Shown in pieces: positions 49,226-50,275 of a stretch of DNA of 64,000 bases. Position 1 is the stretch's first letter; each line of letters begins with the position of its first letter. Origin of the DNA: Escherichia phage vB_EcoM_YN3. The position numbers and the translations under genes were made by a program. The notes beneath the pieces were generated by a model that saw only the letters and a program-made list of their open reading frames with translations, made no database searches and was not told the DNA's origin. The stretch is from the sequence record PV763136.1; one strand, written 5' to 3'.

Positions 49226-50275
49226 ATGAATTTAACACCTCGCAGCACCATGGTACACGGCATGAAAGAAAAACAGAACGGTTTTGAACCTATGAGTAAT
49301 AAAATGTTCGGTATGCCGGGTGGTATTATGGAAACATACAGCTACCCAACACCTGTTGTTGACCACGTTCTTTATATCGACGATTTGGAAGACTTACAAG
49401 ATCATATGTCTCGTCTGCAAACGATCCGTATGGCTCAGCCGGAAGAAAGCATTCGGGTGATCATCAATAGCCCTGGGGGTTGCGTGCACATTGCAATGGC
49501 TTATCTGCAGGCATTCCGCGAGTCTCAGGCAAGCGTTGTTGCACATGCTGAAGGGATGTGCTGCTCTGCGGGAACAATCTTATGGCTGGGTTGCAAAGAA
49601 CGCACTGTGGCTCCGGACACAGAGTTTATGTTCCACTACTACCAAGGTGGCACTTATGGTAACGGTGTGAACATGAATACTCAGGTCAGCTACTGGAAAA
49701 AACGTTTCGAACGCCTAATCGAAAAATACTACGGCTGGGTGCTGACAGAAGATGAGATCGCATCCATCACAGCTGGCGGTGAAGTGTGGTTAGATGGAGA
49801 AGAGCTGGCATCTAGAACTGGTGCTATCATTCTGGACGATGAAAACATTCAGCGCATTCAGAATGGACAGAAACCGAAAAAGCTTTTGGCAAAAAGTGAT
49901 GAAGAAGGTGTGCTAGGCGAAGCAGGCCTGCCAGAGATTCACCAATGCACCTCTTTAGATGAGTTAGTTCATGCTGTTGAATCTGCGAAAGCGGTTGGTT
50001 CGAAAGGTGATGTTCACACTGTGTTCCTGAATCTGCAGATGGAAAGTGGTGAGACCGTTAAGATTGCCTTAGGTGAGATTACCTCAGAAGATCTGCAGCG
50101 ATTCTCTGTCATTGAACTTCAAGACATTCTGTCCCAATTGAAGACAACCCTGAACGGTGGTGAAGAGGTTAAGGTAAAAGATAAGACTCGCAAGCGTCTG
50201 GTGGACAATATTATTAAAACAGCAAAAGAGCTCAATGAAAAAATCCTGGGTGCAGGAATTGTCGAAGAAGCTTAA
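49226..50275 (+). CDS. ClpP / S14-like serine peptidase with about 150 aa acidic C-terminal extension
   Basis: INSPGG motif, GMCCSAGT with catalytic Ser, MFHYY His; 349 aa. Confidence 0.6.
   Translation: MNLTPRSTMVHGMKEKQNGFEPMSNKMFGMPGGIMETYSYPTPVVDHVLYIDDLEDLQDHMSRLQTIRMAQPEESIRVIINSPGGCVHIAMAYLQAFRESQASVVAHAEGMCCSAGTILWLGCKERTVAPDTEFMFHYYQGGTYGNGVNMNTQVSYWKKRFERLIEKYYGWVLTEDEIASITAGGEVWLDGEELASRTGAIILDDENIQRIQNGQKPKKLLAKSDEEGVLGEAGLPEIHQCTSLDELVHAVESAKAVGSKGDVHTVFLNLQMESGETVKIALGEITSEDLQRFSVIELQDILSQLKTTLNGGEEVKVKDKTRKRLVDNIIKTAKELNEKILGAGIVEEA

Follow-up and report, generated by a model that had tools for sequence, protein, structure and literature searches.

A ClpP-like gene of Escherichia phage vB_EcoM_YN3 is predicted to encode an accessory serine peptidase that probably acts without host Clp ATPases

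The closest described counterpart of the gene considered here is open reading frame (ORF) 122 of phage rV5, which has been annotated as a ClpP-like protease gene since the rV5 genome was published and is labelled 'ClpP ATP-dependent protease subunit' (rV5 record; Table S3 of PMC3606486). In the literature on phage ClpP-like proteins (rV5, ICP1, T5 and Vequintavirinae) we found annotations, a 'function unknown' remark for phage BF23 and the suggestion, made in a jumbo-phage review, that the patchily distributed phage ClpP is likely to be host-directed; no functional work was found there. Here we describe the ortholog of ORF122 in a stretch of 64,000 nucleotides (nt) from Escherichia phage vB_EcoM_YN3, an rV5-like Vequintavirus (sequence record PV763136.1; the whole stretch is called the window), where it occupies positions 49226 to 50275. 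We consider it fairly probable that this gene encodes an accessory, non-virion serine peptidase of the ClpP fold, which would be expressed early or in the middle of infection, would act independently of host Clp ATPases and would carry a tethered C-terminal targeting domain.

The 2.1 kilobases (kb) around the gene are 96.5% identical to rV5 DNA, and this matched stretch is covered to at least 80% in 115 phage records. With rV5 gp122 and its Vequintavirinae orthologs the window protein shares ~98% identity and a length of 349 amino acids (aa); the neighbours (NrdG, PhoH, ORF121 and a methyltransferase) and the positions of promoter and terminator are shared as well. There is no difference of substance between the window protein and these orthologs (PHROG 5410), whose labels include 'ClpP-like protease', and the match to PHROG 5410 is that of a full-length family member (E 1.9e-154, aa 24-345 against profile positions 4-322 of 323). 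More than 100 phage genomes already carry this annotation, and the name ClpP-like protease gene is nothing new. A match to the models of anti-phage defence and counter-defence in PADLOC was not obtained for the protein. Among the nucleotide matches, 19 records labelled 'Campylobacter phage' (host C. jejuni; MG0656xx, e.g. MG065654, MG065666 and MG065646) are 96-98% identical to the window sequence; such identity to an E. coli rV5-like sequence suggests that these records are mislabelled or contaminating coliphages.

The preliminary description, made from the letters of the window, had read positions 49226-50275 as a gene for a ClpP-like serine peptidase flanked by its own ribosome-binding site and terminator. 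The reading frame is real: it starts with ATG, encodes 349 aa, has a ribosome-binding site 6 nt upstream and is followed after the stop codon by a terminator hairpin (50287-50308). The gene and its parts are these:

49226..50275, + strand: ClpP-like serine peptidase gene, ATG start, 349 aa, ortholog of rV5 ORF122/gp122 (PHROG 5410)
49226..49360, + strand: N-terminal region (aa 1-45), modelled with low confidence or as disorder, with family-conserved N25, G29, Y40 and P41
49361..49837, + strand: ClpP-fold catalytic core, aa 46-204, from the model, Foldseek, the alignments and the family tally
49565-49567, 49634-49636 and 49781-49783, + strand: predicted catalytic-core residues Ser114, His137 and Glu186, the last at the position of ClpP Asp171
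49838..50008, + strand: linker, aa 205-261, one short helix followed by a segment that varies in length, is poorly conserved and is modelled with low confidence
50009..50260, + strand: C-terminal domain specific to the family, aa 262-345; in order, beta-hairpin, short helix, helix 295-309, extended loop and helix 322-342

An AlphaFold model, built from 15 relatives, is confident over the core (aa 46-212, predicted local distance difference test score, pLDDT, ~90), while residues 1-45 have pLDDT 28-38. The best Foldseek matches are ClpP chains (E 4.5e-10, target template-modelling score 0.71, ~160 aligned columns, ~20% identity). Pfam CLP_protease (PF00574; MEROPS clan SK) matches with E 2.5e-12 and 47.5 bits, above its gathering cut-off of 20.2, and PHROG 1827 matches over the core with E 9e-40. 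The assignment to the ClpP/S14 type by the preliminary description was thus upheld, with similarity in Pfam, PHROG and Foldseek far beyond chance and with all three of its motifs confirmed: INSPGG (aa 80-85), GMCCSAGT (aa 110-117, with Ser114) and MFHYY (aa 135-139, with His137). The alternative family Peptidase_S49 (the SppA/lambda gpC type) was rejected, with no S49 match at E <= 1 and the His conserved as in S14. The other Pfam matches, NfeD1b_N and SDH_protease, were weak and sub-threshold.

A MAFFT alignment was made of the protein, the ClpP encoded in the E. coli K-12 genome and phage relatives of both the long and the short form. In this alignment, as in phmmer alignments to solved ClpPs, ClpP Ser97 corresponds to Ser114 and ClpP His122 to His137. 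ClpP Asp171 falls on Glu186 in the MAFFT alignment, so that an acidic, hydrogen-bonding side chain is kept and the Asp itself is not. We then tallied 189 sequences of the family, of which 175 were database proteins and 13 came from phage loci, the remaining one being the window protein. None of the 189 departs from Ser and His, and the glycines of the oxyanion hole are conserved too, while the Asp171 column holds D in 113 sequences, E in 39, Q in 32, T in three and S in one. An invariant Ser/His pair combined with D, E or Q at the third position is in keeping with a working serine peptidase whose third residue is relaxed, not with a dead enzyme.

The surface through which a true ClpP receives its ATPase is different. 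The pocket for the IGF/IGL/LGF loops of ClpX, ClpA and ClpC is made of L23, L48, F49, A52, Y60, Y62, F82, I90, M92, F112, L114 and L189 (bioRxiv 10.1101/820209). Mapped through an alignment of ~20% identity, in which the key positions are anchored gap-free to the INSPGG, Ser and His motifs and the mapping is therefore robust, hydrophobic residues are kept at 3/12 positions, and the remaining 9/12 are polar, charged, small or deleted:

L23: P43
L48 and F49: deleted (5-residue deletion in helix B)
Y60: R77
F82: E99
I90: H107
M92: E109
F112: T127
L114: A129
A52, Y62 and L189: M69, I79 and I202, hydrophobic character kept

Close relatives all have R77, E99, H107 and E109, and the pocket positions are mostly polar over the 189-sequence family. 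The curated ClpP models (TIGR00493, PRK00277 and others) gave 33-39 bits against cut-offs of 228-309 and all failed, TIGR00493 with 33 bits against 308.6. Compared with E. coli ClpP (MEROPS S14), the phage protein shares the fold, an INSPGG-type oxyanion loop, Ser and His in register and the handle helix (aa 150-169 in model and alignment). It differs in its overall identity of ~20%, in the Glu at Asp171, in the docking pocket, which is not conserved, in a helix B shorter by five residues and in the addition of a 145-aa C-terminal extension. It also has no recognisable axial-loop motif: we found no alignable counterpart to the N-terminal axial-loop or gating motif of ClpP, residues 1-45 being conserved only among close relatives, and the short relatives begin at the first core strand, without an axial loop. 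As far as can be judged from aligned residues, the protein is not a canonical ClpP and the AAA+ docking pocket of true ClpP is gone. With the pocket lost, the words 'ATP-dependent' are doubtful and unsupported, and the public label 'ATP-dependent Clp protease proteolytic subunit' probably misdescribes the phage clade as a whole.

The core is followed by what the preliminary description called about 150 aa of acidic helical sequence. The length holds (145 aa). The extension is not more acidic than the core, with a net charge of -7 and an isoelectric point (pI) of 5.1 against a core pI of 4.8, and its linker is disordered and is followed by a beta-hairpin and three helices, a layout on which two structure models agree. 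The loop between helices 295-309 and 322-342 is basic (VKVKDKTRKR), and the conserved positions of the domain are F293, E297, L298, R322 and L325. With a hidden Markov model (HMM) of the C-terminal domain, the domain is also picked up in ClpP-like proteins that are 260-375 aa long and more divergent. Fold searches with the domain gave no significant match, and in a viral structure library it matched one protein alone, which is probably of the same family. A word-index search with the C-terminal 147 aa alone returned no match and was uninformative, as it missed even near-identical orthologs. Pfam scans of 23 and then eight C-terminal sequences produced matches to Rho_N, HeH and SAP, all sub-threshold; a match to MpsC is probably spurious. 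The resemblance to Rho N-terminal, HeH and SAP motifs is weak and non-significant, the domain of the window protein differing in its preceding beta-hairpin and its overall acidity, and it is taken as a lead only. For a nested internal start giving a separate C-terminal product, as in lambda C/Nu3, inspection of the linker by eye showed no convincing Shine-Dalgarno sequence with a start codon.

The signals around the gene are as follows:

48795..48823, + strand: sigma-70-type promoter TTGACA-17-TATTAT, 11/12, from a promoter scan, equal to rV5 P121 at the same relative position
48854..49165, + strand: small upstream ORF of 103 aa, ortholog of rV5 ORF121, apparently co-transcribed with the ClpP-like gene
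49215..49219, + strand: ribosome-binding site AAGGA, read from the sequence, 6 nt upstream of the ATG
50287..50308, + strand: GC-rich hairpin terminator AAAGCCCUC-UUCG-GAGGGCUUU, 9 bp, RNA fold -14.7 kcal/mol, z -2.57

The promoter scan found no promoter belonging to the ClpP-like gene itself, the nearest sigma-70 consensus being the one that precedes ORF 48854-49165. Its position places the 103-aa ORF and the ClpP-like gene in one unit, in the order promoter, 103-aa ORF, ClpP-like gene and terminator; a terminator is also annotated within the matched 2.1-kb stretch in phages HdK5 and Alma. A second sigma-70 promoter, a perfect 12/12 (TTGACA-18-TATAAT), lies at 47404-47433 (+ strand) directly after nrdG and equals rV5 P118. 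With both promoters near or at the sigma-70 consensus, transcription of the block seems to need no modification of the host RNA polymerase. The 103-aa ORF had no family match in Pfam, NCBIfam or PADLOC. Weak BLASTP similarity (E 1e-4 to EspYZU15 ORF135/136 and 0.02 to KaOmega gp236) links it to the ORFs that directly precede the ClpP-like gene in Seunavirus and Certrevirus (Vequintavirinae), and it may be a conserved partner of that gene.

The location of the gene agrees with an accessory role. The rV5 paper treats genes 27-81 (late, with a T4-late-like motif) and 82-163 as separate transcription units, and ORF122 lies within unit 82-163, alongside ribonucleotide reductases, NrdG and PhoH. Neither published virion proteome contains the protein: the rV5 analysis reported 19 proteins (text and Table S5), with gp122 not among them, and 28 proteins were reported for virions of the related phage W70, without the ClpP-like W70_205.

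The same setting recurs in other phages. A tblastn search gave ClpP-like matches in 1,076 phage records, with query coverage above 80% in 183 only. Homologs stand among genes of nucleotide metabolism and replication, away from head genes, in ICP1, Otagovirus, Barbavirus, KVP40-like, T5-like and Pakpunavirus phages and in Vibrio phages F94 and 193E37-1; in Barbavirus a separate peptidase is listed in the head module (PMC6715854). The accessory genes of PHROG 1827 (ICP1 ORF211, T5-type BF23 ORF45 and Stubb gp048, Pakpunavirus CAb1 orf40, Otagovirus phiPsa267_047, Barbavirus gp072 and KVP40-like K575_0041) encode homologous cores with 25-36% identity, an invariant Ser and His and polar pocket positions. 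At 180-245 aa, most of these are short and lack the C-terminal domain. ICP1 (ORF211, 326 aa), F94 and 193E37-1 have C-terminal extensions of their own, ~130-150 aa long and not detectably homologous by HMM; between the ICP1-type and the rV5-type extension homology was undetected by BLASTP as well.

Taken as a mechanism, our proposal runs as follows. Within a nucleotide-metabolism and replication block, a sigma-70 promoter would drive the small upstream ORF and a predicted peptidase of a phage-specific clade (PHROG 5410/1827). Catalysis would most likely be by Ser114 and His137, with Glu186 in place of ClpP Asp171. Since the handle region of ClpP is kept, ring-shaped oligomers are probable; since the hydrophobic IGF/IGL pocket is lost, the protein most likely acts without host Clp ATPases. 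It would then cleave peptides and unfolded proteins unaided, unless it works with a non-canonical partner. A flexible linker of ~55 aa carries the C-terminal domain, which we propose as a targeting or partner-binding module; it would bring the protease its substrates, whether these come from the host or are early phage proteins.

Several points weigh against this proposal. Apart from the low identity behind the pocket mapping, the best-scoring curated family is a ClpP-related head-maturation protease (NF045542, 60.2 bits against a cut-off of 120), and PHROG 1684, also a head-maturation protease, matches with E 7.8e-22. Purified BF23 virions gave a low-intensity signal for ORF45, the T5-type homolog, in a paper that calls the function of the T5-type Clp protease unknown (PMC10644984). 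The rV5 virion proteome, with its 19 proteins, is shallow. Head proteases often leave the capsid or digest themselves, so that absence from virions is weak evidence. According to the rV5 paper, sigma-70-like promoters are spread over the whole rV5 genome, and the promoter alone therefore cannot fix the timing of expression. The fold searches having given no significant match, the targeting role of the C-terminal domain is a guess.

Some of these points favour a capsid-associated protease, either the real head-maturation protease displaced from its module or a second protease that is packaged into proheads, with the C-terminal helix-loop-helix as a targeting domain that binds capsid or scaffold. 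For the core, the head-maturation families (NF045542; PHROG 1684, 94, 2976 and 133) score above the cellular ClpP models, a ClpP-like prohead protease/capsid fusion model reaches 50.9 bits, and the T5-type homolog was seen in virions, as noted above. A protease with a C-terminal helical domain also recalls protease-scaffold arrangements such as lambda C/Nu3. The head module of the window, at 12892-19028 on the - strand, bears directly on this explanation:

17481-19028, - strand: large terminase
15822-17378, - strand: portal
15335-15910, - strand: XkdF/Peptidase_S78_2 protease, between the portal and major capsid genes (Pfam PF14550, E 1.1e-17; PHROG 1530/3017)
14358-15335, - strand: phrog_2970 protein
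13948-14337, - strand: decoration protein
12892-13899, - strand: lambda-E-type major capsid protein

The XkdF-like protease that the preliminary description placed in the capsid module is indeed there and intact, and its ortholog W70_136 (phrog_1530) is among the W70 virion proteins, whereas W70_205 is not. The ClpP-like gene lies ~30 kb away on the + strand, in a non-late unit among nrdG, phoH and a methyltransferase gene, as had been said of its position outside the module. NF045542 fails its cut-off at 60 against 120 bits, and gp122 is absent from the rV5 virion proteins. The major capsid protein of rV5 virions gave a peptide K5-R22 (Table S5; KDEFGIVDLG... from residue 5), which means that no N-terminal propeptide is removed from it. 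The C-terminal extension is unlike any head-module protein: we found no similarity that would indicate a shared capsid-targeting sequence. The BF23 ORF45 signal is among the weakest in the virion table, where dihydrofolate reductase, a non-structural protein, was also detected, so carry-over is plausible; neither rV5 gp122 nor W70_205 has such a detection. We therefore regard a capsid-associated protease as unlikely, and the ClpP-like protein is probably not the head protease. Of the two roles offered in the preliminary description, that of a displaced true head-maturation protease finds no support in the head module, the profile score or the virion proteomes, and the evidence is better matched by a second protease with targets in the host or the phage.

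The head module itself showed some further features. The listed GTG start of the XkdF-type protease overlaps the portal gene, and the probable start is near 15766 or 15754. The best PHROG of this protease is phrog_1530, 'DNA methyltransferase', matched at profile positions 218-373 of 379 only; the label looks like a misnomer, possibly arising through fusion proteins in that PHROG. The target of an XkdF-type head protease is puzzling, given a lambda-E-type capsid protein without N-terminal processing. The 'scaffold' of the preliminary description is present as ORF 14358-15335. Its scaffold role is uncertain, as the phrog_2970 ortholog W70_135 is an abundant virion 'capsid protein' (913 spectra); the counterpart was undetected in the rV5 virion analysis. 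The last ~40 aa of this ORF match the 'tail fiber' PHROG 35194 (E 8.9e-10).

A second alternative is a true ClpP subunit, whose rings would dock host ClpX or ClpA, or mix with host ClpP, and so redirect ATP-dependent degradation during infection. The ClpP fold, the Ser, the His, an acidic third residue and the handle region are retained, the Pfam gathering score is passed (47.5 against 20.2), and phage G, which encodes a ClpP-ClpX pair, is a precedent for phage use of Clp. We nevertheless hold this explanation to be quite unlikely. Nine of the 12 pocket residues have become polar, charged or small or are deleted, several of them invariantly, and the segment of helix B that carries L48/F49 is shortened by five residues. 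No alignable counterpart to the N-terminal axial loop was seen, the ClpP models are far from their cut-offs (33-39 bits against 228-309), and no ClpX-like gene lies near the ClpP-like gene. An identity of ~20% to host ClpP makes mixed rings unlikely.

A partner other than a Clp ATPase might be sought among the neighbours, two of which recur in relatives:

47962..48750, + strand: PhoH-like ATPase gene (Pfam PhoH, E 3.6e-47), recurrent upstream neighbour of ClpP-like genes
50327..50860, + strand: putative N6-adenine DNA methyltransferase gene with an NPPY motif (ITNPPYS), recurrent downstream neighbour

A PhoH-like gene lies within ~2.5 kb upstream of the ClpP-like gene in 9/14 sampled phage lineages and in two metagenomic relatives. 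The order phoH, zero to four small ORFs and ClpP-like gene is found in rV5-like phages, Seunavirus, Certrevirus, ICP1-like phages, Otagovirus, Barbavirus and the metagenomic relatives, and in phiPsa267 phoH overlaps the start of the ClpP-like gene by 8 nt. PhoH beside the ClpP-like gene is missing in W70 and in T5-, N4-, KVP40- and PAK_P1-like phages, and the linkage may reflect an inherited block instead of a functional pair. That the PhoH-like ATPase serves as a nucleotide-driven partner, or that the HeH/Rho_N-like C-terminal motif tethers the protease to nucleic acid and so removes DNA- or RNA-bound proteins, appears to us rather improbable. We give as little credence to a bolder reading, in which the protein would be a new kind of phage protease: a self-compartmentalising ClpP-fold ring with a conserved polar patch instead of the AAA+ docking pocket and a tethered domain that selects substrates, possibly together with a co-inherited PhoH-like ATPase. 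One possibility under this reading would be the stripping or degradation of nucleic-acid-bound proteins during host takeover.

The downstream neighbour at 50327-50860, which lies 3' of the terminator, has weak, below-cut-off Pfam matches to EcoRI_methylase and Dam and at 177 aa is unusually small for an N6-adenine methyltransferase. Its counterpart is 'conserved hypothetical' in the rV5 record and an N6-adenine methyltransferase in later records. A DNA methyltransferase gene often follows the ClpP-like gene in relatives.

Finally, the protein might have kept the ClpP fold but lost catalysis, and serve in structure or regulation. This reading, which would draw on the replacement of the canonical Asp (Glu here, Gln in many relatives), is very improbable given a Ser and His invariant in 189/189 sequences, the conserved oxyanion-hole glycines and the ability of Glu or Gln still to orient the His; Listeria ClpP1, a ClpP with Asn at the Asp171 position, is active in a mixed complex.

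What the analysis contributes is a correction of a label ('ATP-dependent' is probably wrong clade-wide) and a lead. For the rV5-type genomes used in phage therapy, the practical gain is better annotation only. For phage biology, we are dealing with a gene for an accessory, predicted non-virion protease that is conserved in many unrelated lytic phages, including rV5-, ICP1-, T5-, Felix O1/Otago- and PAK_P1-like phages. If the reading as a new kind of protease were true, the pairing of phoH with the ClpP-like gene would be a functional module and would give a testable role to PhoH, a long-standing orphan marker gene. The substrates of the protease, once found, would reveal the effect of a common phage-encoded protease on the infected cell, and they might also account for its frequent linkage to phoH.

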